Positions 12,989-35,500 of a stretch of DNA of 64,000 nt are shown one piece after another. The position numbers and the translations under genes are program-made. The stretch comes from a virus, in IMG/VR virus record IMGVR_UViG_3300025093_000019, positions 15,290 through 79,289 of that record; one strand, written 5' to 3'. The number at the start of each line of letters is the position of its first letter. The stretch's first letter is position 1. The notes below the pieces were generated by a model that saw nothing but the letters and a program-made list of their open reading frames with translations, was not told the DNA's origin and searched no databases.

Positions 12989-14902
12989 TTATGGCATTGT
13001 TGCTTGTTGATCTATTCCTTCATCGCTACCCAACATGTCCTTAACCGTTCTCATTTGTCTAGCGTAATCTCCTGTTGATGTAACTATGTTTATATCAGCA
13101 CCTTTAGCTCTACTAGCATTTGGATTTGCTAAATCAGCATAATGCATTGAATTTGTCATATTAGAACCTAGATTGATTTCTAGCCACTCACGCTTCCATT
13201 CTTGACCTTCTTTTGGAAGAGTTATACCATAAGATCCTTCAAGCTCATCTTGTAATCTCCAGTTAATTAAATGAGCTGCAAAATCTTCACCATGAGATGT
13301 TTGCCCACTAACTATAGGTCTTATTTCTCCAACACCTTCAGTACCATCAAAAGCCATGAGCTTTCCACCCTCTACTAGATCATCGTCTTCATTGATTAAG
13401 ACTTTCCAGTTTGCCACCCACTCTTGTTTTTTCACACGATTACCAAGATCATTTGTAGTCCATTCATCGCCATTCATCAAGGTAAGGTTATTAACACCGA
13501 CAACTCTCATTCGCTTTAACTCGTCTGCTGTATATTCTGTCCACAATCCATCTAAATTTAACTGACCATTTTGTGCTAAATCGTACATTGTTGTAGTTCC
13601 ATCCTCCTTAACAAAAGCGTCTTGAAATTGCTGTAAATACGGTCCAAAGTTTTGCCAATTATACTGATCAGTTTTATAAGCATCTTTAAGTACTATCTCT
13701 TTTCCATTTACATATTCACCACTCTCAGTATAGTTATTTACACCAACTTGATCTGTCTCTGGTCCTGCCCCTTCCGAAATATTAGCATACATAAATTGAC
13801 TTTGATCTTGAAGAACTTGACCAGTTTTAGGATCATAATTTTGATAAGCCCACTCATCTCTCTTTTTTGATTCTGTCTTCTTTTGTTTTAGTTTTTCTGC
13901 ATAGTCACCAACTCTAGAAGCAAAATAAAACTCTTCAGCAACTTGAATTTTATCAGGATCATTTAGTTCATCAAATGTAAACTTTCTATTTTCTAAAACT
14001 AGTTGTCCATTTTCATCTCTATAATAACTACCATCATCATTTAGTTTAGGCATTGAAAATGAACGATTTCTATGATACGCATCAAACATTTCTTGACGCA
14101 GAAAGTATTCATGATTTTCATCTAGTCCATATTTTCTTATATAGTCAACAGCCGCTTTAACTTGTTCATAGTTGTTTGCTGTAAGTCCTCCTGATTGATG
14201 AAGCTCACCTAATCCAAAGCCAAAACTTGATGTATTGTCTTGGGTTACCTTTGTTATATTGTCCCAAGCACTACTATTAATACCACGATCGCTAAAGTAA
14301 GCATTCATCATGGCGTTAAACTTATCCATATCCCCAGTTCCTTCATCATAATCAATAGGCATTAAACCTACTGTTCCATCATCATGATATCCTAGATTAG
14401 GGTTATTTACTCTTTGCTCTAAGTATTCCTTTTTTGTAGTACCAGTAATTTTTCCTTTATCGTCCTGATTCCACTGCTTCATCATATAGTTACCACCACC
14501 AACATCCCTCAGTTCATACTGGCCTTGTTGCTGCCCGGAACCATAAGTTCTTAAAGCAATATCTCTAGCTTTTGTTAACTCTAAATTTCTAGTTAAGGCT
14601 TGTTTATTGTAAGCATAATAGTTTTGAGTTCCTGCCAATTGCCTATATTTAGGATCTGCTTGAACCCAATCCATTTCACCTCCATACTGACTATAAAGAG
14701 ACTTTAGTCCTGTTTGATAGTTTAGTTGATTTTGATACATCCATTGACCATCTCCCGGAAGACCTTCAACTTCCAGGTCGGGCATACCAGGCATAGCGTC
14801 TTGTGGCTTTTTATATCTTGTAAAACCTAAAGGCTGTCTAGCCCTAGCTCTTTGATAAGCCATTGTCCCAGGTGCATCACCCATGTAATTTACTAACGCC
14901 AT
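12989..14902 (-). CDS. Putative internal virion/cargo protein (637 aa)
   Basis: Long ORF immediately upstream of the vRNAP polyprotein, the position of ejected proteins in crAss-like phages; no recognised motif. Confidence 0.55.
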   Translation of the reverse strand: MALVNYMGDAPGTMAYQRARARQPLGFTRYKKPQDAMPGMPDLEVEGLPGDGQWMYQNQLNYQTGLKSLYSQYGGEMDWVQADPKYRQLAGTQNYYAYNKQALTRNLELTKARDIALRTYGSGQQQGQYELRDVGGGNYMMKQWNQDDKGKITGTTKKEYLEQRVNNPNLGYHDDGTVGLMPIDYDEGTGDMDKFNAMMNAYFSDRGINSSAWDNITKVTQDNTSSFGFGLGELHQSGGLTANNYEQVKAAVDYIRKYGLDENHEYFLRQEMFDAYHRNRSFSMPKLNDDGSYYRDENGQLVLENRKFTFDELNDPDKIQVAEEFYFASRVGDYAEKLKQKKTESKKRDEWAYQNYDPKTGQVLQDQSQFMYANISEGAGPETDQVGVNNYTESGEYVNGKEIVLKDAYKTDQYNWQNFGPYLQQFQDAFVKEDGTTTMYDLAQNGQLNLDGLWTEYTADELKRMRVVGVNNLTLMNGDEWTTNDLGNRVKKQEWVANWKVLINEDDDLVEGGKLMAFDGTEGVGEIRPIVSGQTSHGEDFAAHLINWRLQDELEGSYGITLPKEGQEWKREWLEINLGSNMTNSMHYADLANPNASRAKGADINIVTSTGDYARQMRTVKDMLGSDEGIDQQATMP

Positions 14903-14920
14903 AACCTCAAAGTTAAAAAA

Positions 14921-16777
14921 TTAAGATGAATATAATTCGCCTAGCTGTCTTCTTTCGTCTTCAGTCATTTTCATGTAGTCTGAAAAAGATAAATACCCAC
15001 TTTTTGGATTGTTAGGATCTTTTCCTGCCATCATTTTAGCTTTGTCTAAAGATTTATAATCCATGTATGCAATATCCATATCCATAGAAGACTTTTCATT
15101 AATCAATCCTTGATCTCTGTATAGTCCAGCTTCTTCTGCGTCAAATATCTCACGAACATTTCCTGCAATCTTCTCACCTTTGTCTGCTGCAAACGCAGAT
15201 CTAGCAGCTTCATTTTGCATATCTCTTTGCATCTTCTGACCAAGCCAAGTAGAATTGTATTGATCTTCTCTTACTCTGTCTTGATTTAATTGCTGGTTTT
15301 GCATTGTCCATAAAGAAGACGCTATCTTGTTTTGAGAGTCCATCTGATTTGCACTAATGCCTGTAGTACCAACTGGAGATCCCCCCATTTGCTTATTGAT
15401 ATAGTGAGCCAATCTAGCTTGCTTACTTACGTCTGCTTCAGCATCTTGTTTCATTGTCTCATAGTCCATCCTTGTAGATGAAGGACGAACTCGAATTGGA
15501 TCAGGAAGATCTTTGTATTGACGACTAAGATTCCAAAGCCCCATCCCTGCATTTGCCAATTGCTCTCTTTGAGTCAAAGCTTCACTTCTCTCCATTAACC
15601 CAGCCAAAGCTTTTTCTTCTGGACTTTGTTCTTCAAATTTAGATGTATCTCTAGGATCTGTTGGATCTTTAAATTCGGCATCTAATTCCGGATCGTATAG
15701 TTCATGACCCTCTGGAAACTTTCCACCTGGATAATTATTACGATTAGTGAATGCATCGTCAGAAAGGCGTAATGGCTGTCCTGTTTTTTCCTCCCATGTT
15801 GGAAGAGATGCAGGCATCTGCATGTGATATGGATCCAAATCTTTACCAACGATATAGTTGATTGGATTATCAGGATCTCTCAAATCGAAACCACGCTTAC
15901 CAGCTCGTATCTGTTCCTTTTGACGCTCAATCTCTTCAGGAGATAATCCAGACCATCCGCCTCCAATAGTAGACCAATCAAGATCATCGATATTGTCAGC
16001 GTTGTAAACTCCTGGAATCATGTTTCCTGCAATACTTGGATCTCCAGTTCCCATGGTAGGAGTATTGGCATTTACTCCAGCTGCACCCACTCCTTCTCCT
16101 TCAGCTACTTCTTCTGATGTTGGTGATATTGGTGATGTTGGTGATGTTGAAGTATTTTGATATTGAGCCATTATTGATGGATCCATTTCTAAAAACTGGT
16201 ATTGACTATTTCCTTGTAGATATTTAGGCCATTCTCTTCCAGCTAATTTATGAGCACCTTCAACTGCACCATCAGTAAGATCGTTGTCTCCATACATATT
16301 TTGTATTAATGCAGCTACAAACTCTAATGGAACGTCTGTTCCACCACCATTTTGATACGAAGGATACTGATTATTGTTATTCATCATCAGCCCATATAAT
16401 TTACTATCTACCATATCCTTTACTTGTTTAGTGGTTCCACCTTTTACTCTTTTGTTGTATGGAGAATTTGGAGAAAGAGCTTCTGGATCTATTCCCAATT
16501 CATTTTGCATTCTATCAACTTGTTCTTGATTCAGGAAATACTCTTTAGATGAAATATTAATATCCATTCCGGATCCTCCGCCTTGGTTCATGCTAACTTT
16601 TTGATTTGGATCATAACCTAATGCAGCAACAATCTTTTTAACTGATTCAACATTCTCGTGAGGCACAACATGCCCCGGACCAGCATTCATTTGTTTATCG
16701 TCTGCTTTAGGATTTCCATTCCCCGGAACAATTCCGTAAGAACCACGTTTAGTCATATTTCCAAATAGAGATCCCAT
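14921..16777 (-). CDS. Putative internal virion/cargo protein
   Basis: Start probably the ATG overlapping the previous stop (TAATG). Has MNQGG and YQNGG motifs, an N-terminal G-x-V-x-G-x-G...D...I-S-x-x-E-Y segment and a Gln-rich coiled C-terminus. Confidence 0.55.
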   Translation of the reverse strand: MGSLFGNMTKRGSYGIVPGNGNPKADDKQMNAGPGHVVPHENVESVKKIVAALGYDPNQKVSMNQGGGSGMDINISSKEYFLNQEQVDRMQNELGIDPEALSPNSPYNKRVKGGTTKQVKDMVDSKLYGLMMNNNNQYPSYQNGGGTDVPLEFVAALIQNMYGDNDLTDGAVEGAHKLAGREWPKYLQGNSQYQFLEMDPSIMAQYQNTSTSPTSPISPTSEEVAEGEGVGAAGVNANTPTMGTGDPSIAGNMIPGVYNADNIDDLDWSTIGGGWSGLSPEEIERQKEQIRAGKRGFDLRDPDNPINYIVGKDLDPYHMQMPASLPTWEEKTGQPLRLSDDAFTNRNNYPGGKFPEGHELYDPELDAEFKDPTDPRDTSKFEEQSPEEKALAGLMERSEALTQREQLANAGMGLWNLSRQYKDLPDPIRVRPSSTRMDYETMKQDAEADVSKQARLAHYINKQMGGSPVGTTGISANQMDSQNKIASSLWTMQNQQLNQDRVREDQYNSTWLGQKMQRDMQNEAARSAFAADKGEKIAGNVREIFDAEEAGLYRDQGLINEKSSMDMDIAYMDYKSLDKAKMMAGKDPNNPKSGYLSFSDYMKMTEDERRQLGELYSS

Positions 16778-18276
16778 TAGCACCAACCTTTTTTAGTCAT
16801 TCCACCTTTCTTATACGGCATCTTTCCACCAGACATCATTCCAAGCATATTCTGTTCTTCAAAATTAGGGCTAGAGTTTAGAGAAGGTCTAAACATATTC
16901 CCATCAGGCAACGGAACTGTAACAGTTGGAATATTACTTCCCGGAGTCTTTTCTTTTGTAAGTCCACCATCTTCAAAAGAAGGAACATTGGCCTCTGCCA
17001 TAAAATCTTTTGTTTTTACTCTTTTGAATTGGCCATAGTCAACGCCTTGAGAATCAACATAACCTTGTCTGATTCTTTGATTAACCATTCTTTTAATCTC
17101 TCTTGCACCTTTTCTGTCTCTAGACATTGCCGGCTGGTAGTTTCCTTCAGGACGAGTATCTTTACTATCCCAATATTCACCCCATTCAACTCTTTCAGAT
17201 CTTGGAACTCTATCAGCTGGAGTCATTCCCCCTGCTCGATAGTTCATCATATTAGTTAAGTTATTGTTTTGTTTCATTTTTCCTGGAATTGCTGCACCAT
17301 CTTTTGCTGAATATACACTTCCTTGGTTTGCGTAAACAGAACCTCTTTGTTGTTGTTGATCATGTAAACCTTCAGCTATTTGCTCTTGTCTTACCATTTC
17401 TCTTCTTGCAGAGCGTTTACCTATAAAATGATCTGCAAGCATAAGTCCTGCACCTATAACATCTCCTGATTTAACTTTATCAAAAGCACCTTTAGCTGCA
17501 TCACCTGTACTATTTGCATCTTGTTCTGCTTGCATTTGCTCCAACTGCTGAGTTTCAGTGTTTACAACTTGCTCCATTTGACTCTCTTGACCAGGCATAG
17601 GCTCTCCTAAGTTTTGAGATTGTGCTCCCATTGCAGCAGGAGATCCTAAAACTTTAGGCCCTTGATTTGCACCCAACTCAGGAACAACATTACCTGTTGC
17701 TTCAGGAGCTTGGCCAAAGTTTTCTGGTAATTGTATTTCTGATTGCTCTGCACCCTGAACTGCATTTTGTATGCCTTGAGTGTCAGCATAATTCATTGTC
17801 TGTCCAGCATTTTGAAGTCCTTGACCTGTAAGTTTTCCTAGATAATCAAAAAACTCCGGACTTATTCCGCCCATCTGATAAGAAGGTTTTTTAATCTTTC
17901 CTCCTCTAGCAACATTCATTGTTTCGGTTGCTGTTTGATTTCCTAAGTACTGATTAGCCGGTGTAGATCTCTGTGCTGTATGGCCTTGGTTTTTGTTTTT
18001 TTGCATCATTCCCATGACACTTTTACCAATTTGAGGAATCATTTTTGACATACCTCCTCCACCACCAGAGCCACCTCCGCCCATCATTCCACCCATCTTG
18101 GACATAAGGCCTCCGCCTCCGCCTCCACCCATGAGTCCACTTAACATTCCACCACCACCGGCTGCTCCACCGGCTGCTCCTGCGGCTCCTGCTCCTGCGG
18201 CTCCACCGGCAGCCCCTGCTGCGGCTCCGCCTGCTAATACTTTTCCTGCTATTGCTGCTATTGCTGGCCAAGGCAT
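16777..18276 (-). CDS. Gly/Ala/Met/Gln-rich putative DNA-ejection (pilot-like) protein
   Basis: N-terminal hydrophobic Gly/Ala low-complexity tract, several xxxGG motifs, located in the cargo cluster. Confidence 0.55.
   Translation of the reverse strand: MPWPAIAAIAGKVLAGGAAAGAAGGAAGAGAAGAAGGAAGGGGMLSGLMGGGGGGGLMSKMGGMMGGGGSGGGGGMSKMIPQIGKSVMGMMQKNKNQGHTAQRSTPANQYLGNQTATETMNVARGGKIKKPSYQMGGISPEFFDYLGKLTGQGLQNAGQTMNYADTQGIQNAVQGAEQSEIQLPENFGQAPEATGNVVPELGANQGPKVLGSPAAMGAQSQNLGEPMPGQESQMEQVVNTETQQLEQMQAEQDANSTGDAAKGAFDKVKSGDVIGAGLMLADHFIGKRSARREMVRQEQIAEGLHDQQQQRGSVYANQGSVYSAKDGAAIPGKMKQNNNLTNMMNYRAGGMTPADRVPRSERVEWGEYWDSKDTRPEGNYQPAMSRDRKGAREIKRMVNQRIRQGYVDSQGVDYGQFKRVKTKDFMAEANVPSFEDGGLTKEKTPGSNIPTVTVPLPDGNMFRPSLNSSPNFEEQNMLGMMSGGKMPYKKGGMTKKGWC
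18040..18235 (-). repeat. GC-rich low-complexity coding repeat (GCN/GGN codons encoding AAGGAAG/GGGG)
   Basis: Runs of ccaccggctgct/cctccgcct in an otherwise AT-rich genome; explains spurious overlapping Pro- and Arg-rich ORFs. Confidence 0.8.
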
Positions 18277-18288: not shown

Positions 18289-21200
18289 TTAGTTGTGCGA
18301 CTGTCTAAAATGAGTCAACACTGATTTGATAAAGATACGACTTTTTGTTTTCCATTCTATTCGAATTTTGATCCACCTACCACGGAATCTACTGTCAACG
18401 TCGTATATATTATTTGTAGGATTTTGTAAGTCTTGAGTTCTTATTATTGGAAGCTTCCATAAATTTTCAGTATATGCAGGATCTCTCCAATAACTAGCTT
18501 CTGTTCCTTCTATCCAAGGAAAGTGTTCTGATATCTGATGTTGTGTTTCGTAAACAACACGATAAATGTTATCTGAGCTTGTACTTAGTTCTAGATTGTC
18601 AAACACCTTTGTAATATCTGCTGCTTCATTAACTACGAATTCCACAAAACATAAATCCGGATCATCATTGTCAAAGAATGTAGTTGCATTTTCGTTTCCT
18701 GCAATTTCATAGATGTCTTTCAAATAACCAACTGATGTTATAATTGGATCCGGATTCATACTAGGAAATGACAATTTACCAAACGCAAAGAAGTCTTCAT
18801 TGATTGTAAACCTCATTGCTGAATCAGCTGTTCTTTCACCATGGAAAGCTCCTTGAAGTTCATTAAATACTATTGTTCTTCCAACATCTTTTATAGAGCA
18901 ATCATCTAGTCTTTCAGGGCTTCCATATATCCAAGTGAAATATATGTCTTGATGTTTTCTATCGTACACACTAGTAATACCAGTTCTACAAACTGGGTTA
19001 TCTAAAAAGAATTCAACACGATCACTTTCGTCATTATTAAACTCACAAAGCTCGTGGAGTGTCGATCGATAACCTTGCATGTCGGACAATACCTCCATTT
19101 GCATATTACCTTTCATTCTCCAAATCTTTCTCTTATTAAAGTCAACACCATATATTGCAATCTCTGTTGAAACAATTGACCACTGATGCTGAGATCCAAC
19201 ATAGTCTGTTAAGTTCTGATGTTTAGAATCCAGTATATCCCCAGTACCAAGTAATAACTCACCTGTAGATGATCCTTGATTAAGTACAGCTTTTTCGTTT
19301 ACAAAATGCCTGTTAACCCCTTCTTCTTGAATAGAAAACAATGCATTATTTAAAACCTGTAGAGATTTTATTTCACCCATTCTATAATCATACTCTTTCA
19401 GTGCAGATAAATCGATAACACGATATGCATCTAAGAATGATCCTGGTCTATGCTTATTGCTAAACATAATACCAACAGGTTTGTTTTCCGGGAAGAAAGG
19501 TACCTCTAAATCTATACCATTATAAAACTTGCTTGACAGAACTTTATTATAACCCGGATTAAGCAACTCAGACTCTCTTTCAATGTCTTTTACAGCTTGC
19601 TCGTAAACATCTGCATATGAACCTGGATAAAACTTATTGATGAAATCATCCAATCTCATCTCAGTATTTATTTTGTTTTCAGATATAAAAGAGTAGCAAA
19701 CACCAAAAGAATATAGTCTTTCTCCAATTAAGCCATCAAACAATCCAATGTCTATACCACCAGCAGCTATATTTCCTCCGTCGTCTTTTACTCCTGGTCC
19801 ATACTTAGGATTGTACATTTGCTTGTGCCATGTTCTTTGCAAAAAGCAATCTCCTTTGTAGAATATTTGATCATTAATCAGTCCATTATTAGCTTGAACG
19901 TCAGCTATACGATAATACTTTGATATCTTAAAGTAAGTTGTTGCTTTTACATCATACAAGTCTGTTATATCAAAACTAGCAGGATCTACACTTGTGTTAT
20001 ACAAGTTAATCATTCTATAGTCGTATTGAATGTCTGCATCTATGCCTATATAGCTCATATATGCCGATTCAAGATTAATCAACTCAATAAACTTGGTATC
20101 AGCTAAATTTTCTGCTAAAAAGTAATACATTGAATCGAAATCATTTCTTGATCCTTGATTAAAATAAGATGTATAGCTATTGTTGTTGGCTTGTTCCCAT
20201 GGTGCTATATTATGAACATCATGAAGATATTTTATCCCAGTACTAAAATTATATGTTTGATCTTGATAAAAATAATCCTCTTTACTGGGATCTATATCAG
20301 TAAATCTTTGAAAATCAATTGTTCCAAATGGATAAACTAGTGCTTTTGGTATCCCAAGTGTTTTTACAAAGAAATGATCAGATGAATGAAAGCCCCATTT
20401 GCCTTCTACCTGTTGAGTGTGTCTTTTAATGTGGTTGACAAAAGTGAACACCTGAGTAAACAGGTCACTAAAGTCATACTTTGTTTGATAAGGAAAAGAA
20501 GCTATTCTATTAGGTTGATTTAATATTCCTTTTTCTTCTTCAAACATTGGAACTACATCCTCATTTCTTTTTTCTATTTGTGGATATTCACCAATCAAAA
20601 AGTAAAGACCTCTTGATGAGGCACCATCAGCTGCATTATAGCATGGTAATGTAAATCCTTGATAAAGAAGTGTTTCTTGACGCTCTGCTCTTACAATATA
20701 GAATCCGGTTACATTATCTAAAATGTATTGTGGTATAGATGCAAAAGCATTTGTAACGTCAAACTGAACACCCATTACATTAATTAAGTTTCCAGAAACT
20801 GTTGGAGACACGTTGATGTTCGGAAATCTATAAACACCACTTGTGTTTGGCGTACCACCTAGATTCCAATCATCACGACCAGCAATTGGGAATGCCTGTG
20901 TCTCTCTTCCGTTCTTTAAAACATAGACAATGCCATAAGCATACGCTTCACCTCTAAAATATCCAGTTCTATTATAGACATTTATTTCGTTGTTATAGAT
21001 TCCTACATCTCCATTTCCATTTCTATGCTGTAACTGCAAAGTAGCATTGTGACTTGGAACAATCAGTTGAGCAAAATTAAATAGATCTGTTATTGCTTCG
21101 TCACCATAGTCTGTAGTATCAAAAAGATTTCCTGCAAAGTATCTGTTCTCTAATTGAGTGTGCGTTAAAGCACCATCATACTGAGGTTTGGTTTTTATTA

Positions 21201-22212
21201 TTTCATCTAATCCAGTTTCAAAAGTTCCTTCGTATCCTGTAATCTCTATATCAAGAGTAGATAAATTTGGATCTATTGAATAAAGCTTATCTATGATTCC
21301 ATATTCAACTGTGTCACTAAAGTAGTACATGTAGCCTATCTCTAGATAAGAATATGTTGTATCAATATTTGAATACCTAAGCTTTATACTTTTGTTGGTT
21401 TCTTTGCCGCCTTCATCACCATGATGTCTAATACCTTCAGACAAATAAGTTCCTTGAGTTATTTGTATTGCATTTGTCTCAGTGAAAAAAGAAGTCTTGT
21501 CAAAGTTTTCTGTTGAGTATCTAGCAAAAAATATCCAGTTTCCTGCACGAGTTTTTCCAGCCTGTCCAAGGCCTTGAAAAGAAACATCAGCATGTATATC
21601 AGATTCATGCAAAAGGTTTACTGCATTTGGAAATGAGTTGTCCCAATACCTTCTTTTGAATGATGTACAATTTCCATCTTGATCAAAACCAGTATTGTAA
21701 ACTCTAACCGGCAATCCTTTCTGAGCCATATATAAGCTTACAGATCCATCGTAATCCTCTCTTGCAAATATCTCAACTTGATTTTCACAATCAAAACCTA
21801 GCAAATCTGTTCTAAAGTATTGAGATAGTGAGTTCTCATCTCTAGGTGTATTTGGTCCTGTAAAATTAAAGAGTGGGGAATATTGTTTTGCAGTTCCCCA
21901 TCCCGAGAAAGAACAATCTTGATTTACCAATGCTAATGGTGCAGGATAGCATCCTATTTCACTTTGACCAGTACTAGGGTTTGTTGATGCTATATAGGCA
22001 ACACCGTTATACTCACAAACTCCAACAGGAACAAAACCATCTTCTAAACTAAATTTTGCTTCGGATCCACCGACATTAGTAAGAACGGCAGTTTTTCCAT
22101 CAACCTCAATATAACGCATGTTTTGGATTCTCCTAGAAGTATCCTTTGGTATGATCAATAAATCAAGATCTCTATTATCTCCTTTATGAAACTCGTTTAT
22201 ACTAGTTGGCAT
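18289..22212 (-). CDS. Tail stabilisation/muzzle protein (P22 gp10-like, crAss Tstab)
   Basis: 1307 aa. N-terminal F-x-K-G...D-x-D...N-M-R, YFRGEAYAYGIVY, C-terminal KVFDNL...RFRGRWIKI typical of this family; follows the tail tubular gene. Confidence 0.75.
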   Translation of the reverse strand: MPTSINEFHKGDNRDLDLLIIPKDTSRRIQNMRYIEVDGKTAVLTNVGGSEAKFSLEDGFVPVGVCEYNGVAYIASTNPSTGQSEIGCYPAPLALVNQDCSFSGWGTAKQYSPLFNFTGPNTPRDENSLSQYFRTDLLGFDCENQVEIFAREDYDGSVSLYMAQKGLPVRVYNTGFDQDGNCTSFKRRYWDNSFPNAVNLLHESDIHADVSFQGLGQAGKTRAGNWIFFARYSTENFDKTSFFTETNAIQITQGTYLSEGIRHHGDEGGKETNKSIKLRYSNIDTTYSYLEIGYMYYFSDTVEYGIIDKLYSIDPNLSTLDIEITGYEGTFETGLDEIIKTKPQYDGALTHTQLENRYFAGNLFDTTDYGDEAITDLFNFAQLIVPSHNATLQLQHRNGNGDVGIYNNEINVYNRTGYFRGEAYAYGIVYVLKNGRETQAFPIAGRDDWNLGGTPNTSGVYRFPNINVSPTVSGNLINVMGVQFDVTNAFASIPQYILDNVTGFYIVRAERQETLLYQGFTLPCYNAADGASSRGLYFLIGEYPQIEKRNEDVVPMFEEEKGILNQPNRIASFPYQTKYDFSDLFTQVFTFVNHIKRHTQQVEGKWGFHSSDHFFVKTLGIPKALVYPFGTIDFQRFTDIDPSKEDYFYQDQTYNFSTGIKYLHDVHNIAPWEQANNNSYTSYFNQGSRNDFDSMYYFLAENLADTKFIELINLESAYMSYIGIDADIQYDYRMINLYNTSVDPASFDITDLYDVKATTYFKISKYYRIADVQANNGLINDQIFYKGDCFLQRTWHKQMYNPKYGPGVKDDGGNIAAGGIDIGLFDGLIGERLYSFGVCYSFISENKINTEMRLDDFINKFYPGSYADVYEQAVKDIERESELLNPGYNKVLSSKFYNGIDLEVPFFPENKPVGIMFSNKHRPGSFLDAYRVIDLSALKEYDYRMGEIKSLQVLNNALFSIQEEGVNRHFVNEKAVLNQGSSTGELLLGTGDILDSKHQNLTDYVGSQHQWSIVSTEIAIYGVDFNKRKIWRMKGNMQMEVLSDMQGYRSTLHELCEFNNDESDRVEFFLDNPVCRTGITSVYDRKHQDIYFTWIYGSPERLDDCSIKDVGRTIVFNELQGAFHGERTADSAMRFTINEDFFAFGKLSFPSMNPDPIITSVGYLKDIYEIAGNENATTFFDNDDPDLCFVEFVVNEAADITKVFDNLELSTSSDNIYRVVYETQHQISEHFPWIEGTEASYWRDPAYTENLWKLPIIRTQDLQNPTNNIYDVDSRFRGRWIKIRIEWKTKSRIFIKSVLTHFRQSHN

Positions 22213-22223: not shown

Positions 22224-25200
22224 TTATTTAAATCCAGCACCTCCAAACATTTTTTGCATCTGCATATAGTTTATCAATCCACGTTCACCAGGACTTTGAA
22301 CTGCATCAGTATTTACACTTGCAGACTGTACTTTTTGTTGTTCTGCTGGTTGTTCTTCAACAGGAACTTCTTCTCCCTTGCTTTCTGCAATTGTTTGAGA
22401 TCCAGCCCTTGTTGCCGTTTTTTGTGCGGCAACTTTTTCAGCCTGAATAAGAGTAGGAGTGATTAAGCTTCCTGCTGAAATATCATCAATTGATCGACTA
22501 CCTATTGCAGTAAATTCGTCAAGTTTTCTTGGTAACAAATACTCTCCAGTATTAAACATGTTTCTTCCTAAAGCGTCTTTAAGACCAGGATTTACAATTT
22601 TATTGTCTATTTGGAGTAATGAGTTTTGCCAATAATTTTGAGGTTGAGAAACCATTTGATTTACATTTATTCTCTGGTTTAAAGGCAAACTTAAATAGTG
22701 TTTTCTAAATTCAGGATTACTCATCATTTCTGCTCTTGACGGAATAGATTTTGTTGCAGCGTCTTCTACAGCTTCTCTTGTAATTCCTGTCGGAAGACTT
22801 TTTCCTTTATTTGCACGAGTCATTAAATTTCCTAAGCTGTACTGAGATGCTGCGGCCTCTGTTAAAGGAGTTGCTTGATACATTAAATTATCTCCATATT
22901 GAGATGCGTATTTAGCAAGTTCATCATTATTTTTTAATGCTTGTTGCCACATTGCATCAGAAGGATTAAATTGTCCACTAGCTATTCTATCTTTTAATTC
23001 TTGTAATGATTCTTTTCCTGTAAGTCTAACAAGATCTTTTCTTTTAAATAATTGACTAGGTTTAGCAACTCCTCTTAAAACTTGATTTACTCCAAGCTCT
23101 TTAGCTGTTGCATAACCAAGCATTTTTGACGCTCCTGTAAGTTCACTAGCACCAGTAATACCACCAATAAGGTTAGCACCGGCATATCCTAAATCTTTTA
23201 ATCCTTCAGCGTATTCACCTTTGTCAAAATCATCAGCAGCATCACTCATACTAACGCCTGCTTGAGTTGCATAATGTAATGGATTAAATACTTTAAAAGC
23301 GTCATTTATCCATGACTCTGAATCTCCAGAAATATCATATAGATCTTGAGTAGTTACTCCATATCTGTCTGCAACCTGTTGTGCTTTCTCTGGATCACTA
23401 AGCCAAGCTTCTTGACCAACCATTGCACCTTCTCCTTGCATCCATTGAGATCCTGTTAATATAGGATCATCCATAAATGCTACAACTTGCTGTCCAGCTT
23501 TTTTGTACCATGGCATATCATCCCATATCTTTTGCTCTTGTGCCTGGAAGTTTTGTATTTTTTTCTGTTGCATTTCTGGTGCGTACATAGCTTGAACCAA
23601 TGCAACATCGTCATAATCTCCTGTTTCCGGATTAATAAAATCATCTCTACTCAGCCCTAATTCATCTTCCCACAAAACTCTATTTGTGTAATACTCATTC
23701 ATTGCACTTCGAACAAATGCCTGTTGTTCAGCTCTAACTTGTTGGGGTGTTTTAATTTGAAAATCAAATGTATTATCAAAACTGCTATCAACAATGTTTG
23801 TCACGTCTGTTGATTCTGCAACTACAGGCATTGAATCATAACCTAATTCTATATTAGGCTGCTGATCACGTTGCTGCTCTCTTTCAATCCTGTCTGCCTC
23901 TTCCAAGAGTTTAGCACCTTCAATAGTTGGACCTCCAGCATAAGCTTCATCCCTTAGTTGTTGAGCAGTTTTTGAATCGGTTCTAGTAAGTAATGGCGGG
24001 GCTGGAGCAGTGTAGGTTTCTTCACCTGTTTCTTGTTCTTTTTGACGTTGCATAAGATCTCTAGCTGCTCTTTCTGCTGCTAGTTTTCTACTGGCTATTC
24101 CTTCAGCACGTTCACCAAATATTCTTTCAAGACCTTCTTCTGTTCCAAAATTAGATTTTATGAGTTCATTGAATGCACCTGATTTAGTAAAGCCCATATC
24201 CATGTACTCTTGAATCTTTCTCATGCCTCTCTCATCATATTTTGCTTGATGATAGTCATATACAGGCTGGAACATTTCATCTATTCTAGCACGATCTGCA
24301 CCGGTTATTTCAGCAAGTTTGTTACCTCTATATCCATGTTGCATTATTCCTTCAGATATGTCAGCAACTTCATAGGCACTCAAGGATCCGTCTTCATTCA
24401 TTACAGGGAAATAATTCATATCCCTATACTCATTGAATATCTGATCCATAAAAGGAACTTCACCAGTATATCCTGATTCGTATTCTGCTAGTTGATCTTT
24501 TGTAAATGTAATCTTAGGCTTAATTTTACCGCCATCTTGAAAGTTGAACCGAGCTCTTATCCCTGGCTTTATTTTGTTTATTCCTTTTTGATTTTTGCCA
24601 TCAGCTATATTGTAAGTTCCAGTTAACCCTACAGAAAATTTAGGGAAGTTTTTTGATATACCTCCGAAAGCTTCTCCTTTCCAATATTTATTTGGCTGAT
24701 AAGGAATAATAGCTCCAATATTTCCTTCTAAACCAGATGGAATATGTCCTGCACCCATTAAACCAAAGATTCCTTCTGGATTTGGATTAGCAAACATGTA
24801 TTTGTACATATTACTTTCTTTACCTCCTCCAAACTGGTGATTTAACCCAATGTCTATTGGAGTCCTTTCTTCAGGTAAGTTGGCCTTAGTATTTAAAAGT
24901 ACATTCTTTATATTCTGTTTTGGAGGATCTGTTGGTCCACCATCTTCCATATAAACTTTACCACCAAACTTCCATCCTTCTTGAGGTTGTTCAAGTTCTG
25001 GCTGTTTGCGATAATCAACTGTAATTTCTTCTCCTGCTCCAATCTTATCAATTGGCATAATAAAATGCTTGTTACCAATTTTTGTAACCCTAGCATTTGG
25101 TGTCTCGGAATGATTATAGTTTTGTCCTAAATCTGTTGTTGGCCAATTGTCCTCATGGGTAGTTCCGAAAAATCCATCATTTACTGATAGATCTTCACCA

Positions 25201-25262
25201 GCAAACAATCCATTTCCATGAATTTGAGAAGGTCCTACATATGTCTTTGTTCCCTTTTTCAT
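22224..25262 (-). CDS. Putative virion cargo protein with N-terminal SET (lysine methyltransferase) domain
   Basis: aa ~8-88 contain SQIHGNGLFA, NYNHSETPN and IGAGEEITVDY, the canonical SET motifs. The rest is unassigned, with FGG, MEDGG and FQDGG motifs. Confidence 0.75.
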   Translation of the reverse strand: MKKGTKTYVGPSQIHGNGLFAGEDLSVNDGFFGTTHEDNWPTTDLGQNYNHSETPNARVTKIGNKHFIMPIDKIGAGEEITVDYRKQPELEQPQEGWKFGGKVYMEDGGPTDPPKQNIKNVLLNTKANLPEERTPIDIGLNHQFGGGKESNMYKYMFANPNPEGIFGLMGAGHIPSGLEGNIGAIIPYQPNKYWKGEAFGGISKNFPKFSVGLTGTYNIADGKNQKGINKIKPGIRARFNFQDGGKIKPKITFTKDQLAEYESGYTGEVPFMDQIFNEYRDMNYFPVMNEDGSLSAYEVADISEGIMQHGYRGNKLAEITGADRARIDEMFQPVYDYHQAKYDERGMRKIQEYMDMGFTKSGAFNELIKSNFGTEEGLERIFGERAEGIASRKLAAERAARDLMQRQKEQETGEETYTAPAPPLLTRTDSKTAQQLRDEAYAGGPTIEGAKLLEEADRIEREQQRDQQPNIELGYDSMPVVAESTDVTNIVDSSFDNTFDFQIKTPQQVRAEQQAFVRSAMNEYYTNRVLWEDELGLSRDDFINPETGDYDDVALVQAMYAPEMQQKKIQNFQAQEQKIWDDMPWYKKAGQQVVAFMDDPILTGSQWMQGEGAMVGQEAWLSDPEKAQQVADRYGVTTQDLYDISGDSESWINDAFKVFNPLHYATQAGVSMSDAADDFDKGEYAEGLKDLGYAGANLIGGITGASELTGASKMLGYATAKELGVNQVLRGVAKPSQLFKRKDLVRLTGKESLQELKDRIASGQFNPSDAMWQQALKNNDELAKYASQYGDNLMYQATPLTEAAASQYSLGNLMTRANKGKSLPTGITREAVEDAATKSIPSRAEMMSNPEFRKHYLSLPLNQRINVNQMVSQPQNYWQNSLLQIDNKIVNPGLKDALGRNMFNTGEYLLPRKLDEFTAIGSRSIDDISAGSLITPTLIQAEKVAAQKTATRAGSQTIAESKGEEVPVEEQPAEQQKVQSASVNTDAVQSPGERGLINYMQMQKMFGGAGFK

Positions 25263-26014
25263 TATGCAACATTTCTAGACATTTTTACTTTAGGAACAAT
25301 GTTATGTAGGAGCATGCTTATTTCGTTCATGTCGTCACGAGAAACATCTCTAAAGTTTCCTTTTGCTTTTGCAACATAGTGACCTAATCGATCGTTCAAG
25401 TACATATATCTTCCATCTGGAATCAATCCATTCATATAGTCCTCAAAATAAAGTTTAGTCATGCAATACCAAAAGCAAGCTTCTTGATGTCCATCTCTAA
25501 TCATTGGAAGACCTTCGTGATCTACAGCTACTCCTATGTAGTCTATATCAACAGTGTATTCTTGACTGAATGTTCCAGGATCATCAAGGTTAAATCGAAG
25601 ATAAGCTCCATCCCAATCATATTTTGGAACAGAACACTTATTTCTATAAACACTCAAGATCCTATAAATGTTACAAGGTAGATATGCTTTATTATGCTTC
25701 ACAGTAACTTTTACATTTCTGTACTTCACAAAAGCATCATACATTGCTATCTCATCTGTCTCACATTCACCACACCATTCCGCAATATCATATATGTCAA
25801 ACTCTTTACCTTTGACGTTTCTAGATATTCTTGCGGCTACATTTCTTACAGAGACATATTTACCTGAGTTAATATGCTCTACAGCTTCAGCAGAAAAACT
25901 CTTTTGAGAGCAATCTCCTGTACCGGGAACATTAATATCACAACTGCTTGCAGATTGTCCAGTGACATTTAAGTTTACCGTGTTGGCTGGATTATTGAAA
26001 CTACTATGACTCAT
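25262..26014 (-). CDS. Tail tubular/ring protein (P22 gp4-like, crAss Ttub)
   Basis: YVSV...KAYLPC...IDYIGVAVDHEGLPMI...EACFWY pattern and position next to the IHF-like gene and Tstab; start at MSHSS assumed. Confidence 0.65.
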   Translation of the reverse strand: MSHSSFNNPANTVNLNVTGQSASSCDINVPGTGDCSQKSFSAEAVEHINSGKYVSVRNVAARISRNVKGKEFDIYDIAEWCGECETDEIAMYDAFVKYRNVKVTVKHNKAYLPCNIYRILSVYRNKCSVPKYDWDGAYLRFNLDDPGTFSQEYTVDIDYIGVAVDHEGLPMIRDGHQEACFWYCMTKLYFEDYMNGLIPDGRYMYLNDRLGHYVAKAKGNFRDVSRDDMNEISMLLHNIVPKVKMSRNVA

Positions 26015-26015
26015 A

Positions 26016-26468
26016 CTATTCGTATTTATGACCACTCTTTATTAAATGGTACATTTTTGTTCTTAACCTAGTATTAAATCTTAGACGATAATGCTTCTTG
26101 TTTCTTTTTGTTATTTCTTGGTTTATCTTTAATCTTGGAGTAAAGACTCTACCATCAGATTCAATATCATAAATATAATCAGAACGATTTTCATTTGCTG
26201 TATTCGATACTTTTAAATAACCAAATCCAGGAGATGGAAAAACAAATATTTCATTGTTCTCAATCAGATCTGTAGATAGTTTACTTAAAAAAGAATTGAA
26301 CACATGTGTTGCAATACTCTTTGCTTCTGATTCTGTTTTTGTTCCTAATAGATCTTTATATGAACTGAAGGATCTCTTTTTAAAGTTGTCTAAACTTAAA
26401 ACATCAGACAAGCTATTTATCTTGTATGCATAAGTAGCATCATCATTGACAAATTGCTCATATCTCAT
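26016..26468 (-). CDS. IHF/HU-like protein of the crAss structural module
   Basis: Helical N-terminus followed by F-x-F-P-x-x-G-F-G-Y-L-K-V and a basic arm; crAss-like phages carry IHF-like genes at this position. Confidence 0.55.
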   Translation of the reverse strand: MRYEQFVNDDATYAYKINSLSDVLSLDNFKKRSFSSYKDLLGTKTESEAKSIATHVFNSFLSKLSTDLIENNEIFVFPSPGFGYLKVSNTANENRSDYIYDIESDGRVFTPRLKINQEITKRNKKHYRLRFNTRLRTKMYHLIKSGHKYE

Positions 26469-26469: not shown

Positions 26470-26862
26470 TTAATGTTTAAATCGATCGGTAGGCTGAATT
26501 TCACTTGCTGTCTTCCAGATTTGATTTGGATCCGGATGTGCAACTATCTCTGAAAAGTCAGTACCTGGGTTTAAATGTTGATCTCTTCTTGCTACATCAA
26601 AGTCTTGGCTTTCTTTTGGAATCGCTACGTTTGTCTCTACTACATACTTTTGATCTACATAAAATATGTTTCCAGAAACACAAACACCATAGTGTTTAAC
26701 TATAGCTTTTTTTGTTCCTCCACATCCACAACCAATTTCTAACCAAACAATCCTATCAAATTCATATTGATGATTTATCTTAAACAGATGACCACCCATG
26801 TACAATCTATTTTGAAAAGTAACATGGCCACATACATCTTCTTGTCTAACGATATTCGGCAT
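26470..26862 (-). CDS. Hypothetical protein (GCGCGG motif)
   Basis: ORF in a tightly packed operon. Confidence 0.6.
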   Translation of the reverse strand: MPNIVRQEDVCGHVTFQNRLYMGGHLFKINHQYEFDRIVWLEIGCGCGGTKKAIVKHYGVCVSGNIFYVDQKYVVETNVAIPKESQDFDVARRDQHLNPGTDFSEIVAHPDPNQIWKTASEIQPTDRFKH

Positions 26863-27539
26863 TATTCAATTCTACTTGGTTTATTTAATTGATCCGGACT
26901 TTCATCTCTAGCATTATTGCCTTCGTCTGGACCTATCTGGATTGTGCTCATAAACTGCTGTATAGCCAATAACTCTAACTTGTGTATTAAATGTCTAGCA
27001 ATAGGGAATGGATCATCTTCATTACAAATGTCTCTAGGATCTTCAAGAACACCAATCAAACAAACAAATTTCAAACCATGAGTAGGAAGGTTTTTTAATA
27101 TCGCTTTATCATCAACCAGTGTAAATGATGGAGCTTTACCTGTATATTTCTCATGATCAGAATATAAAAACCCTTGGAAGCTTGTTCTTCTAAATGGATT
27201 TCTTTTGTCAACTGTTCCTAAATACTTAATAGCATCATAGCCAACCGACGATTCTACTTTAGGTATTTTTATGTAATATTCTTTTACTCCAGAGTTATAT
27301 CCATTACAATGAATAACATCACACTCTACTTCTAAGCAACACTCAGTTGTATAGTCTTGATCATTTAATTTTCTGAACTTTCTGTATTCTTCTTTCAAAA
27401 GCAGAGATCTAATATCCCAACACTTATCATAAACAAGTTGAATATCAATGCGTTCATCATCAGTAGGATAATATCCTTTAATTTGATTCCTGATGCTGTA
27501 ACCTATTTCTGCTAATGTTTTTGACATCTTAAAGCCCAA
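26862..27539 (-). CDS. Putative head-tail ring/connector protein
   Basis: Conserved-looking crAss structural ORF (LEDP...FPI) between capsid and tail genes. Confidence 0.55.
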   Translation of the reverse strand: MGFKMSKTLAEIGYSIRNQIKGYYPTDDERIDIQLVYDKCWDIRSLLLKEEYRKFRKLNDQDYTTECCLEVECDVIHCNGYNSGVKEYYIKIPKVESSVGYDAIKYLGTVDKRNPFRRTSFQGFLYSDHEKYTGKAPSFTLVDDKAILKNLPTHGLKFVCLIGVLEDPRDICNEDDPFPIARHLIHKLELLAIQQFMSTIQIGPDEGNNARDESPDQLNKPSRIE

Positions 27540-30305: not shown

Positions 30306-31772
30306 TTAAACTCCTGGCTTATAGAGTTCAGCAAATCCAAATGGATTTTTCAAGCAAAGACCTGTCTCAGACAGAACTTGTACTTGGTATCCATCAACTG
30401 AATTTGAAGCAAATTCTCTACGTCCAGTTCCTCCTGGAGAAGCCATACCATCGATCACTTTCTTCACATATCGACGATCATCTGATCCGTTTCCAAGTGC
30501 GATTAGATCTACGTTTGCATCTCCACCAATTGTGTTTCCAAGTGAAACAAAGAATCCACGGTAAGACTCAAGGTTTGTTCCATAGATGTCTTTTTGTTGT
30601 GGTCGCCATGCAGCGTCCATTGCTTTGTTCCAAGCTACAACAATACGAACACCAGCCATTTCATAGCTGTTAAACGCAACTTTCACACCTTTTTCTTGAT
30701 CACCTTTTGACACAAACAATGGCTCAGGATTGTACTTGAACACATCACGCATCAATCTCTGGAAGTTCCAGATAAATGCTTGACCTCCCATTACAAACAC
30801 CTCAGTCATTCCGTCATTGTTTGCAAGAAGCTGCATATTCTGCATAATGTTCTCAATTGTCTTGATGTTCAAGTTGTTATACTGGAACTTCAATGAAGCA
30901 TCCCCTTGAGCAACAAGTCCATCACCTTGAACGATCTCACGGCCTTTAAGGTCACGAAGATATACGTTCTCATTTGCATCGATGGAAGCACGTCCAAAGA
31001 TCAATTGGTTCTCACGAGCATAAGCCCAACGACGCAACATTTCCATTTCTTGTTGCTTGAACCATAATTTCTGACCATTGTGCTCAACCCACAATACTGT
31101 GTTTTGTGCAGATCCAGAAATTGAGAATTGCATACGCTGAATTGTCATGTAGTTCGTATGCCACTCAGGATAAGTATTTTTCTCATATCCTGTTTCAGAA
31201 AGCTCAGGAAACGCTGTATAGCTGAAACCAACTTCTTTACCAACATCTAGTAAAGATGGATCAACAAAAGCTCCAACAACATTGCTAACAAGCTTACACT
31301 TGTACACCCATTGTCCGCTTGTGTTTTCAACTGGATACTCATCCATGATTTGGATGATTGTTCTTCTATCTCCAAGCTCTAACGTATCGTTAGGAGAGAA
31401 GAAGTTTGTATCCAAAGTCAACAAGAAAACAGATCCTCCTGTTGCAGTGATGATTCCTGGTGTTGACGTTGCAGCACCGGAAGCGTCAGTTACAGCAGCA
31501 GTGATTGTTCCTTTACGGAAAGGATAACCTTTCAATGCCCATTGGAATTTCCTGTTACCAATTACCTTGAAGTCTGATGTTTCCATTCCAGGCTTCAATC
31601 CTTTTTTCTGATACCCTCTACGGGCAAGATAAGACGAAAACGCTGTGAAGTTATCCTCGAAAAGATTCACGACGTTTGTTGCAATCTCGGGGCGAGTCAA
31701 TAAAGCTGCCGCAAGAGAGTTCGTCATTGTAGTCCTATTAGCATCATATGTGCCAGTACCAATAATTTTCAT
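30306..31772 (-). CDS. Major capsid protein (HK97 fold, crAss-type)
   Basis: 488 aa; ELSETG...N.MTIQR, GDGLVAQ, SNSVDGY..LSE.GL.LKNP; order portal-scaffold-MCP; strongly biased codons. Confidence 0.85.
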   Translation of the reverse strand: MKIIGTGTYDANRTTMTNSLAAALLTRPEIATNVVNLFEDNFTAFSSYLARRGYQKKGLKPGMETSDFKVIGNRKFQWALKGYPFRKGTITAAVTDASGAATSTPGIITATGGSVFLLTLDTNFFSPNDTLELGDRRTIIQIMDEYPVENTSGQWVYKCKLVSNVVGAFVDPSLLDVGKEVGFSYTAFPELSETGYEKNTYPEWHTNYMTIQRMQFSISGSAQNTVLWVEHNGQKLWFKQQEMEMLRRWAYARENQLIFGRASIDANENVYLRDLKGREIVQGDGLVAQGDASLKFQYNNLNIKTIENIMQNMQLLANNDGMTEVFVMGGQAFIWNFQRLMRDVFKYNPEPLFVSKGDQEKGVKVAFNSYEMAGVRIVVAWNKAMDAAWRPQQKDIYGTNLESYRGFFVSLGNTIGGDANVDLIALGNGSDDRRYVKKVIDGMASPGGTGRREFASNSVDGYQVQVLSETGLCLKNPFGFAELYKPGV

Positions 31773-32974: not shown

Positions 32975-35500
32975 TTAAGTATCCTTTACTTTCTCTTTCT
33001 TTTGTCCAGCTTTAACTAACTGATCCTGTGTAGCTTCAGCACCCTGTATAGCAAGGTCTGCTTTAGCCATTACAAAGTCCATATTTGTTGCACGTTTCTG
33101 CTCGTCAAGATAAGCCATCTCAACATCTCTTTCAGTATCGATTTGCTTATTGTCAGTCGTGTTTTCAATATTAAGTTTTTGCTGTTCAAATTGTTGTTGC
33201 ATTCCAAACTTCTGCATTTCCCAATTAAGTTTAGCTTGCTCAATTTGAGCCATCATATTTTTAGCATCATCAGCTTGTTTGTCAAGAGCCATTTTTAACT
33301 CAGCATCCATCTGCTTCATCTGTGTTTCATGATCCCTTGTTGCTTGATTATTCTGCTCTACTCTTTGCATTGCAAGTTCTTCATACTGCTCTACTTTTGC
33401 TTCTAACTCTCTCAAGTTATCTACGTTGTAAAGCTTAACAAGGTTTCCAAAAGTTAACATTCCTTCTTGATGTTTTGCAAAAGCCATTTGCTTTATATCT
33501 TGAAGTGCTCTTTCTTCTTTACCACTATCTGTAGTAAAGATCATGTAATCTGCTCTGTCTAAAGTTTCTTGCGGAACATCTAATAACTCTTGTGCAAAGT
33601 CACCTAAAATGTAGGATCCCTTTTTACCTTTTTTCCATGCTTTTCTACACAGGTTAATCACTCTGTTCAAAACTTTTCTTTTTACTTGTTCGTGATCATA
33701 GAATATAATTTCAGTAACAAGTGCTGAGTTTTTAATCGATTGTTCTGTTGTTCCTACTTGATCTGTTGGTGCAATATCCCCCATACGCTGAGGTGATACA
33801 CCAGTAATACTTGAAGCCAACTGTTCAAGGTGTTGAAGCATTTGAAGCAAGTATTGAATACCTGGCCCCATTGAATCATCAAAGTTTTGGAATTGATTAA
33901 AAGATGGCTGACGATTCATTCCTGACCTCACCGACTGAATCCAACCAACTCCCATCTTGCGTTGATACATCCACTCTTTCAAGGACATTCCTTCTGGAAC
34001 TTGAGACTTATCCATAATAAATCCTTTTACTCCTGACAAAGCAAGCCATAATTCTTTATGATAGTGAATAAGGTTGTATAGTATTTGAACATCTTTAGCC
34101 GCCCAAACAAGTGAGTATGGTTTTCTCGTGTACATGTTGTGTGCACGCCCAACATATGGAAGCTCAACTCTTCCGTAATTGTCTTGAGATCTTACTACAC
34201 TTTTCTTTCTGCAATCGACATAAATATCTTGATCAATAAGAACACCTTGGTATATGTCATTCTTGTATCCGACAACTTCTTTTTCTCCTTTGTCTGTTCT
34301 TGCAGATTCAGACTCAGACATCATATGAGTAAAATAACTTCCTTCTCTGTGTGGGTTTGGAGATTTTTTAGCTCTTAGTTTTGTAGGTGATTGCCAATAG
34401 CAGCGAGCAACACGGATAACATTAGCGTAGTCTTCAGAACCAGCATAAAGAGTATCGGGTCCGCAACCATCAACATTATTATTTCCATACTCACCTCCGT
34501 TAACTGAATAGTTATATCCATAATATCCATAGCCATATCCAGTTTGAGTGTTTATATAAGAAGATCTACTTTTTAGCTTCTCGATATCTTGAAAGCTCAT
34601 CTTATCACCAAACTCATCGATGATTTGATTTATACTCATAAATCTTTCTTCCATACACCACTCAGAATCACCAACCCAATCAACTTGGCTATCACCAGCA
34701 TAATAGAATCCCATTGGATTTACTTTTCTGATAACAGGATCTTCTGACTGATCACTCTCTTCCCAATCAGCAAAATAGTATTCTTTATCAACTATCAGTT
34801 TATCTTCAAATCCAAGATTAAAGAGATCTCTTAGATTTTGAGTGGCTATTAGATATTTCAATCCTTTCTCAGCCATAATCTCTAAGAAGTCCTTGAACTT
34901 ATATTTGAAGTAAAGCTCAATATCTTTTAGCTCATCTTCATTAATCAAATTTTCATGGGATATAACATATCTACCCATTGTCAATTGATTCTCAGCAGCT
35001 TTTAATTGCATTTCCAATTCTGGTGGAACTTGCCCTCCCTCTTCTGCGGCTTGTTGTCTTGCTTGGTTTATTTGTTGCTGAATCATATCCAAGTTTTCTA
35101 AAGCTTGCTTGTAAGCTAAAGAAACTTGCATTTTCTTTTGAGACATTATTGAAACAATCTTCTCAAATTTCTTTTGATTCTTGTCGTTAACAGAATTACT
35201 ATCGATACTAAAGACTCTCCAGTTGAAAGGTCTTTTAGTTTCTTCTGCTCTTAACCTGTCAAATTTTGGGCGAAGTAATGGAACGAATCTAATCTTTGCA
35301 GGGTATTCATAGTCGCCAACTTTTCTTAGATAATCAAAGTCTTGGTCATTTTGAATACCATTATACATGTCATAGCAGAACTTATCTTTTGCCTTACTGA
35401 TCTTGCTGGTAAATGACATTTTTACAATTGCACTTACGCATCGTTTCATCCATTCTTTGTTCTTGGAACTTTCAGGTATATTTTGATTCGGTAACGGCAT
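32975..35500 (-). CDS. Portal protein
   Basis: 841 aa; LPNQ...K.KEW, YPAKIRFVP, Q.LYN...KG.I.D, SITGVSPQRMG; directly follows TerL. Confidence 0.88.
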   Translation of the reverse strand: MPLPNQNIPESSKNKEWMKRCVSAIVKMSFTSKISKAKDKFCYDMYNGIQNDQDFDYLRKVGDYEYPAKIRFVPLLRPKFDRLRAEETKRPFNWRVFSIDSNSVNDKNQKKFEKIVSIMSQKKMQVSLAYKQALENLDMIQQQINQARQQAAEEGGQVPPELEMQLKAAENQLTMGRYVISHENLINEDELKDIELYFKYKFKDFLEIMAEKGLKYLIATQNLRDLFNLGFEDKLIVDKEYYFADWEESDQSEDPVIRKVNPMGFYYAGDSQVDWVGDSEWCMEERFMSINQIIDEFGDKMSFQDIEKLKSRSSYINTQTGYGYGYYGYNYSVNGGEYGNNNVDGCGPDTLYAGSEDYANVIRVARCYWQSPTKLRAKKSPNPHREGSYFTHMMSESESARTDKGEKEVVGYKNDIYQGVLIDQDIYVDCRKKSVVRSQDNYGRVELPYVGRAHNMYTRKPYSLVWAAKDVQILYNLIHYHKELWLALSGVKGFIMDKSQVPEGMSLKEWMYQRKMGVGWIQSVRSGMNRQPSFNQFQNFDDSMGPGIQYLLQMLQHLEQLASSITGVSPQRMGDIAPTDQVGTTEQSIKNSALVTEIIFYDHEQVKRKVLNRVINLCRKAWKKGKKGSYILGDFAQELLDVPQETLDRADYMIFTTDSGKEERALQDIKQMAFAKHQEGMLTFGNLVKLYNVDNLRELEAKVEQYEELAMQRVEQNNQATRDHETQMKQMDAELKMALDKQADDAKNMMAQIEQAKLNWEMQKFGMQQQFEQQKLNIENTTDNKQIDTERDVEMAYLDEQKRATNMDFVMAKADLAIQGAEATQDQLVKAGQKKEKVKDT

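Follow-up and report, generated by a model that had tools for sequence, protein, structure and literature searches.

A minimal SET domain at the start of a tail-operon protein of a crAss-like phage

We analyzed a 64,000-nucleotide stretch of viral DNA (positions 15,290 to 79,289 of IMG/VR record IMGVR_UViG_3300025093_000019; hereafter the window), which comes from a viral record of 79,289 bp that is complete and has direct terminal repeats, and which belongs to an uncultured crAss-like phage. Our subject is a single open reading frame (ORF) on its minus strand, P0001, whose product of 1,012 amino acids (aa) begins with a very small SET domain, here called the mini-SET module. The original prediction had placed a SET-domain lysine methyltransferase at 24980-25262 (minus strand), which corresponds to residues 1-94 of this ORF. 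It had read three SET signatures, IHGNGLFA, NHSETPN and GEEITVDY, in a minimal domain bounded by the strings WKFGG and MEDGG and fused to a 1,012-aa protein. Translation bears out these readings: the signatures lie at residues 14-21, 50-56 and 77-84 and the boundary strings at residues 97-101 and 105-109, all within the one ORF at 22224-25262. The features of the gene are given below with the evidence for each; conservation refers to 154 representatives of the module family, each from a different 50%-identity cluster (>50% diverged), aligned with hmmalign to the family hidden Markov model (HMM).

22224..25262, minus strand: P0001, whole gene, 1,012 aa, with an N-terminal mini-SET, a Gly/Asn-rich cassette and a long helical acidic body (ORF list, translation)
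24978..25262, minus strand: mini-SET module, aa 1-95 (family profile, AlphaFold2 (AF2) model, Foldseek, VIA-align, ratio of nonsynonymous to synonymous substitution rates (dN/dS))
25209..25217, minus strand: SET motif I, AdoMet-binding GxG, G16-N-G18 (G16 in 98% and G18 in 100% of the 154)
25095..25115, minus strand: SET motif III, NHSxxPN, N50-H51-S52-E-T-P55-N56 (N50 100%, H51 100%, P55 97%)
25011..25034, minus strand: SET motif IV with the catalytic Tyr, G77-E-E-I-T-V-D-Y84 (E79 100%, T81 97%, Y84 100%)
24984..25010, minus strand: family-specific tail RxQPELEQP, R85-K-Q-P-E-L-E-Q-P93 (R85 92%, Q87 97%, P88 96%, L90 99%, Q92 100%, P93 99%)
24936..24953, minus strand: boundary motif, first copy, Y-M-E-D-G-G, aa 104-109 (alignment, DGG enrichment)
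24543..24935, minus strand: Gly/Asn/Pro-rich cassette, aa 110-240 (alignment A1, composition; no family match)
24528..24542, minus strand: boundary motif, second copy, F-Q-D-G-G, aa 241-245 (Q242, G244 and G245 invariant in A1)
22227..24527, minus strand: body, aa 246-1012, predicted mostly alpha-helical, acidic and Q/A/E-rich (AF2, hydropathy, composition)
23703..24017, minus strand: hypervariable patch within the body, aa 416-520 (comparison with strain L083)

A trimmed SET domain with intact motifs

Residues 1-95 of P0001 are a genuine SET domain, and its fold and homology are secure because profile searches, structure prediction and structural alignment all lead to the same family. A Pfam search and a fold prediction had been suggested as checks on the original prediction, and both came out in its favor. 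Taken singly, the whole protein falls just below the gathering cut-off of Pfam SET (PF00856; 22.0 bits against 22.4, E = 2.2e-4), and in a six-frame search of the phage's own genome the same family scores 24.2 bits, above the cut-off. When the single sequence was compared with the PDB by phmmer, the chlorovirus protein vSET ranked first (E = 0.004). A family profile built from 38 stand-alone and fused copies of the module (alignment A2) matched the SET domain of MLL1 at 7e-16 and vSET at 6e-14, with no PDB match beyond the SET part. The AF2 model of the module, made on the same alignment, has a mean predicted local distance difference test score (pLDDT) of 81.8 and a predicted template modelling score (pTM) of 0.71. 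Searched with Foldseek, this model retrieved vSET (3KMA) as its top match (E = 2e-5, template modelling (TM) scores 0.62/0.64); there were 62 matches at E<=1e-3, and all 45 among the matches listed are SET-domain methyltransferases (MLL, SETD8, EZH2, NSD, SET7/9 and others). VIA-align gave a Z score of 11.8 against MLL1 and of 11.7 against vSET, the latter with a root-mean-square deviation of 2.0 Å over 80 residues. A chance match to the SET signatures is ruled out by this profile and fold evidence. In PHROGs the module family corresponds to phrog_34170, which is annotated as 'unknown function'.

The module is a trimmed variant of the SET fold, smaller than vSET, in which the SET-I insert is removed or reduced. 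The profile alignment contains a gap of ~33 residues exactly at the position of SET-I in MLL1, and ~80 of the 105 modelled residues of vSET have counterparts in the module by VIA-align, in agreement with the minimal ~85-aa domain originally read.

The cofactor-binding and catalytic motifs are intact. N50-H51-S52 aligns to the NHS of vSET and MLL1, and GEEITVDY aligns to EEITISY of vSET. Outside the motifs listed above, S12 and I14 are conserved in 99% of the representatives, and His36, an unusual and family-specific residue, in 97%. The RxQPELEQP tail follows the catalytic Tyr, where other SET domains have post-SET elements, and was not found in the cellular SET proteins from our scan of genome contigs. 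The SET part is under purifying selection, with a dN/dS of 0.107 at a dS of 0.61 relative to the sister strain L083. Intact motifs under such constraint are the pattern expected of a working enzyme, and by analogy we regard the mini-SET module as a predicted lysine methyltransferase.

Carrier protein, gene context and distribution

The remainder of P0001 has little in common with known proteins. The whole protein matched nothing but SET in Pfam or PHROGs, and its body (aa 246-1012) gave no match in Pfam, PHROGs, PDB sequences or the cargo proteins of the crAss-like phage ΦcrAss001; in a protein atlas search with these residues the top score was 0.84, which is chance level. By hydropathy and composition the body contains no Cys and no segment of transmembrane grade. 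With the full-length protein, tblastn against 50,697 phage records and a profile scan of IMG/VR found no match, and the only matches in a metagenome scan were two short contigs, from this strain or a sister strain. P0001 also evolves faster than its neighbors: identity to L083 is 82% at the amino acid level, compared with 100% and 97.7% for the proteins encoded by the adjoining upstream and downstream genes. This divergence peaks in the patch at aa 416-520 (50.6% amino acid identity, 24 gapped codons, nucleotide identity 52-70%), while the rest of the protein is 77-94% identical. The Gly/Asn/Pro-rich cassette at aa 110-240 is found in P0001, P0002 and P0005 and is absent from P0003, P0004 and P0006 (alignment A1).

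A motif of the form [YFM]-[QE]-[DN]-G-G recurs at module boundaries of SET-bearing large phage proteins, namely P0001 and the genes that occupy the same slot in three related contigs (L002-L004, described below). Across the large proteins of the family DGG occurs 122 times, against 48.8 expected by shuffling, with Q at position -1 in 63/122 sites and Y or F at position -2 in 64/122. It might serve for processing or docking, or it might be a linker prone to recombination.

The gene lies within the block of structural genes of the phage, all on the minus strand, which we identified with Pfam and PHROGs:

35505-37394, minus strand: terminase large subunit
32975-35500, minus strand: portal
30306-31772, minus strand: crassvirus major capsid protein (MCP)
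26862-27539, minus strand: ring protein 2
25262..26035, minus strand: crassvirus tail ring protein 1 (R1), upstream neighbor (Pfam CrAss_Ring_1, 1.2e-22)
18289..22212, minus strand: crassvirus muzzle protein (MUZ), downstream neighbor (Pfam crAss_MUZ, 4e-48)

The place in the tail gene block that was originally proposed therefore stands, and the two neighbors, which had been named tail tubular and tail stabilisation genes, are R1 and the muzzle gene. The stop codon of R1 overlaps the ATG of the SET gene in a TAATG junction, which points to translational coupling, and the ATG of MUZ follows 11 nucleotides past the stop of the SET gene. A misplaced start codon is ruled out: the N-terminus MKKGTKTYVGPS is kept in homologues, and the ATG overlaps the R1 stop.

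The SET module is the conserved part of an otherwise variable slot between R1 and MUZ. Synteny with the phage of the window is seen in three IMG/VR contigs, L002-L004 (MCP 87%, R1 67% and MUZ 59% identical), and in each of them the gene in this slot begins with a SET domain that is 50-52% identical to that of P0001 and scores 24.5-29.9 bits against Pfam SET. The bodies of these proteins (621, 568 and 909 aa) cannot be aligned to P0001 past about residue 130. Three traits are specific to this lineage: the gene precedes the muzzle gene, it is translationally coupled to R1, and its SET is retained across syntenic phages while the body is swapped. Modular exchange is also seen in other relatives: P0005 is a full-length homologue of P0001 (44% identity) without the SET domain, and P0007 carries SET internally, at residues 786-897.

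A survey of related phages had been suggested as a further check, and it shows the module to be widespread beyond these three contigs. An exhaustive HMMER search with residues 1-110 recovered 591 cluster representatives (50% identity) at E<=1e-3, 194 of them at E<=1e-10. The 154 representatives comprise 105 proteins that begin with the module, 16 that end with it, 9 that have it internally and 24 in which it stands alone; those with an N-terminal module have a median length of 855 aa and reach 3,301 aa. All 33 large relatives match Pfam SET (best E = 2.8e-17), and their recognizable partner domains are YkuD (5), phage tail lysozyme (4), SLT (2), ART-PolyVal (1) and a few domains of unknown function. 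YkuD, lysozyme, SLT and ART-PolyVal are the typical repertoire of ejected or polyvalent phage proteins. The commonest form in IMG/VR is a protein of ~295 aa, and an ORF of this size with a C-terminal SET occurs at ~60 IMG/VR loci. One contig with this form was examined for context (L058, from a P22-like podovirus). Its 295-aa protein (L058:7401-8288, plus strand) has an N-terminal part matching tail-fibre/adhesin PHROGs, followed by the mini-SET, and its gene lies directly upstream of genes annotated as 'DNA ejection' and 'DNA transfer' and of a tailspike gene. The module is associated with virion and ejection genes. A 98-aa stand-alone copy, in turn, is located among clamp-loader, exonuclease and glycosyltransferase genes. 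All SET proteins found on cellular genome contigs are distant and of the ordinary kind (<=38% identical over full-length matches, with a longer insert), and they provide no clue to the host. In INPHARED only two records match the module, both weakly, and both are from unannotated or uncultured phages.

Further genes of the block bear on the cargo of the virion. In ΦcrAss001, R1 (gp43) is followed directly by MUZ (gp44), after which come the cargo proteins C1 (gp45) and C2 (gp46) and the virion RNA-polymerase proteins (PMC10172136). In the window the corresponding C1/C2 position is occupied by three post-muzzle genes (12989-18276, minus strand) that encode proteins of 499, 621 and 637 aa; none of the three matched Pfam or PHROGs, and BLAST found no similarity to gp45 or gp46. 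When the tail and cargo proteins of the window were compared with ΦcrAss001 by tblastn, the muzzle protein alone matched. After the three post-muzzle genes comes a giant ORF of ~6,829 aa (20.5 kb, about a quarter of the 79-kb genome), which covers 2-12979 of the window (minus strand) and continues to genome position 7779 (L165:7779-18998). Its sole Pfam/PHROG signal is an SF1 helicase/AAA_30 match at about aa 1483-1780, and its product is presumably a giant fused protein of the virion RNA-polymerase or cargo type. A 130-aa ORF located between the two ring protein genes (26470-26862, minus strand) has a sub-threshold match to Pfam CMAS, a class I S-adenosylmethionine (SAM) methyltransferase family (E = 0.004, 17 bits against a cut-off of 27); this match is probably due to chance.

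Site of action and alternative explanations

SAM is found only inside the cell, and the cytoplasm is the sole place where the cofactor would be available. We therefore infer that the module acts in the host cytoplasm, delivered there either by ordinary expression or pre-made on ejected virion proteins, and we lean towards this reading, with modest confidence. The stand-alone copy among replication genes likewise implies an intracellular site of action. For the fused form we propose the following course. The mini-SET, attached to its fast-evolving helical carrier, would be made together with the tail, in the order R1, SET gene, MUZ. The crAss-like virion would then package the fusion as cargo or as an ejection protein, and infection would begin with its expulsion through the tail ahead of the DNA. 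Inside the cell the SET module would use host SAM to methylate a conserved intracellular protein, and the stand-alone copies of ~100 aa would reach the same compartment by being expressed there. Of the targets originally suggested (host nucleoid, ribosomal and defence proteins, and phage HU/IHF-like proteins), none is favored by our data. By analogy, virion delivery of P0001 is plausible because of the coupling within the tail operon, the ejection-type fusion partners of its relatives and the association with ejection genes in the P22-like phage.

Several observations weigh against this proposal. The P0001 gene precedes the muzzle gene, while the cargo genes of ΦcrAss001 follow it, so its position differs from the canonical cargo position. 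The P0001 family shows no detectable homology to gp45 and gp46 by hhalign (probabilities of 0.1% and 0.8%), and the body has no transmembrane-like helix such as that of gp45 (best KD19 hydropathy value 0.87). The secondary structure of the body comes from a full-length AF2 model with a pLDDT of 41, a poor model that is good for coarse secondary structure only. In canonical SET domains SET-I contributes to the substrate groove, and with this insert missing the activity of the module is not guaranteed. Moreover, no cultured phage in INPHARED carries the module.

The same evidence allows other explanations. An active enzyme might do its work late, in the producing cell, with virion proteins, cargo proteins or the enzyme itself as substrate; the fusion to a tail protein would then serve co-expression or local targeting and not injection. 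Because the SET gene is translationally coupled to late tail genes, the cell would contain the enzyme during assembly either way, and a conserved phage-side substrate would also fit the finding that the RxQPELEQP tail and the active-site surface are conserved across very different phages. We nevertheless regard this explanation as unlikely, since stand-alone copies are located among replication and auxiliary genes and not among structural genes, the virions of the carrier phages, crAss-like and P22-like, are unrelated in architecture and share no obvious structural substrate, and the fusion partners lysozyme, SLT and ART-PolyVal act after ejection. Less probable still is that P0001 belongs permanently to the tail structure, for example as a hub, fibre or plug between ring and muzzle, with SET as a structural or binding knob that has no enzymatic role in the host. 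The location of the gene between two structural tail genes, the fusion to a tail-fibre-like N-terminal domain in P22-like contigs and the missing SET-I region would all suit such a role. Complete conservation of G18, N50, H51, E79 and Y84 is hard to explain without cofactor binding and catalysis, for which there would be no SAM outside the cell; the body, in addition, is helical, acidic and hypervariable and shows no fibre-like or beta-rich receptor-binding fold, and the module also exists as a free protein of ~100 aa.

A different question is which residue would be modified. A SET-fold enzyme could act on a substrate other than lysine, either histidine, as SETD3 does, or a non-protein nucleophile. 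The near-invariant His36 and the unique C-terminal tail are both unusual, the missing SET-I means that the substrate pocket differs from those of canonical SET domains, and there is the precedent of SETD3, a SET-domain histidine methyltransferase (PMC8446795, PMC11462206). Against this, every one of the nearest relatives in sequence and structure (vSET, MLL, SETD8 and EZH2) methylates lysine, and the module invariably keeps the catalytic Tyr of the lysine channel, so we give a non-lysine substrate a small chance, on a par with the structural explanation. It concerns the modified residue only and is compatible with action of the module in the host cytoplasm.

A bolder form of the delivery proposal, which we put forward tentatively and consider possible but doubtful, is that this virus-restricted clade of ultra-minimal SET domains (~85-95 aa) is a widespread ejected warhead of unrelated podophages, crAss-like and P22-like, that methylates one conserved bacterial protein within seconds. 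If so, chlorovirus vSET would have its first counterpart among prokaryotic viruses, the module would represent a new class of phage enzyme for host takeover or anti-defence, and SET could be released by processing at the [YF]QDGG motif that recurs at the boundaries.

Lysine methylation by SET domains is considered mainly a mechanism of eukaryotic chromatin, and to our knowledge vSET of an algal virus is the only well-studied viral example. In the searchable literature we found no description of SET domains in phage virion, ejection or polyvalent proteins, or in Crassvirales. The module reported here is still smaller than vSET, its catalytic residues are strongly constrained, and it has repeatedly been attached to virion and ejection proteins. 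If it is active and injected, phages would wield a previously unrecognized post-translational weapon against bacterial proteins at the start of infection, and, if active, a module of ~90 residues would define the minimal catalytic core of the SET fold.

Comparison with known systems

SET enzymes outside eukaryotes are known from cellular organisms. One is Gö1-SET from Methanosarcina mazei, which has the chromatin protein MC1-alpha as its methylation substrate. Others are NUE, LegAS4/RomA and BaSET, effectors that bacteria secrete into another cell, where they methylate its proteins (PMC3980110). The phage module resembles them in being a non-eukaryotic SET domain, whereas these proteins are full-size SETs of cellular organisms; the review of bacterial SET proteins in which they are described does not mention phages (PMC3980110).

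With regard to its carriers, the module resembles polyvalent and ejected phage proteins, such as ART-PolyVal proteins and SLT fusions of the T7 gp16 type, in that its relatives join SET to ART-PolyVal, SLT, lysozyme or YkuD within very large proteins. P0001 itself differs from these in having a single recognizable enzymatic module, SET, next to unannotated parts. Another parallel for the carrier is the cargo of ΦcrAss001, which holds ~5.5 MDa of cargo proteins in its capsid and tail, for which ejection from N- to C-terminus has been proposed (PMC10172136, Bayfield et al. 2023). These cargo proteins are poorly conserved even within Crassvirales (PMC10172136). Like C1 and C2, P0001 is large, non-conserved, largely alpha-helical and encoded beside the muzzle gene, and by this analogy it may be packaged. 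In contrast to P0001, gp45 and gp46 contain no enzymatic domain of the SET kind, and P0001 has no predicted transmembrane helix.

For the module itself, the best comparison is vSET (A612L; PDB 1N3J/3KMA) of Paramecium bursaria chlorella virus 1 (PBCV-1), which has been called the smallest histone methyltransferase and which the virus packages in its virion, to act on a host protein early in infection (PMC7019647). Like the phage module, vSET is a minimal viral domain that consists of SET alone, with no pre-SET or post-SET zinc clusters. vSET, however, is a free 119-aa protein of a eukaryotic virus and targets histone H3K27, whereas the phage module belongs to viruses of prokaryotic hosts, which lack H3, and is usually fused to large phage proteins. 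The phage module is also ~20 residues shorter in its core, owing to the reduced SET-I, shares ~25-29% identity with vSET, and carries its own RxQPELEQP tail and His36.

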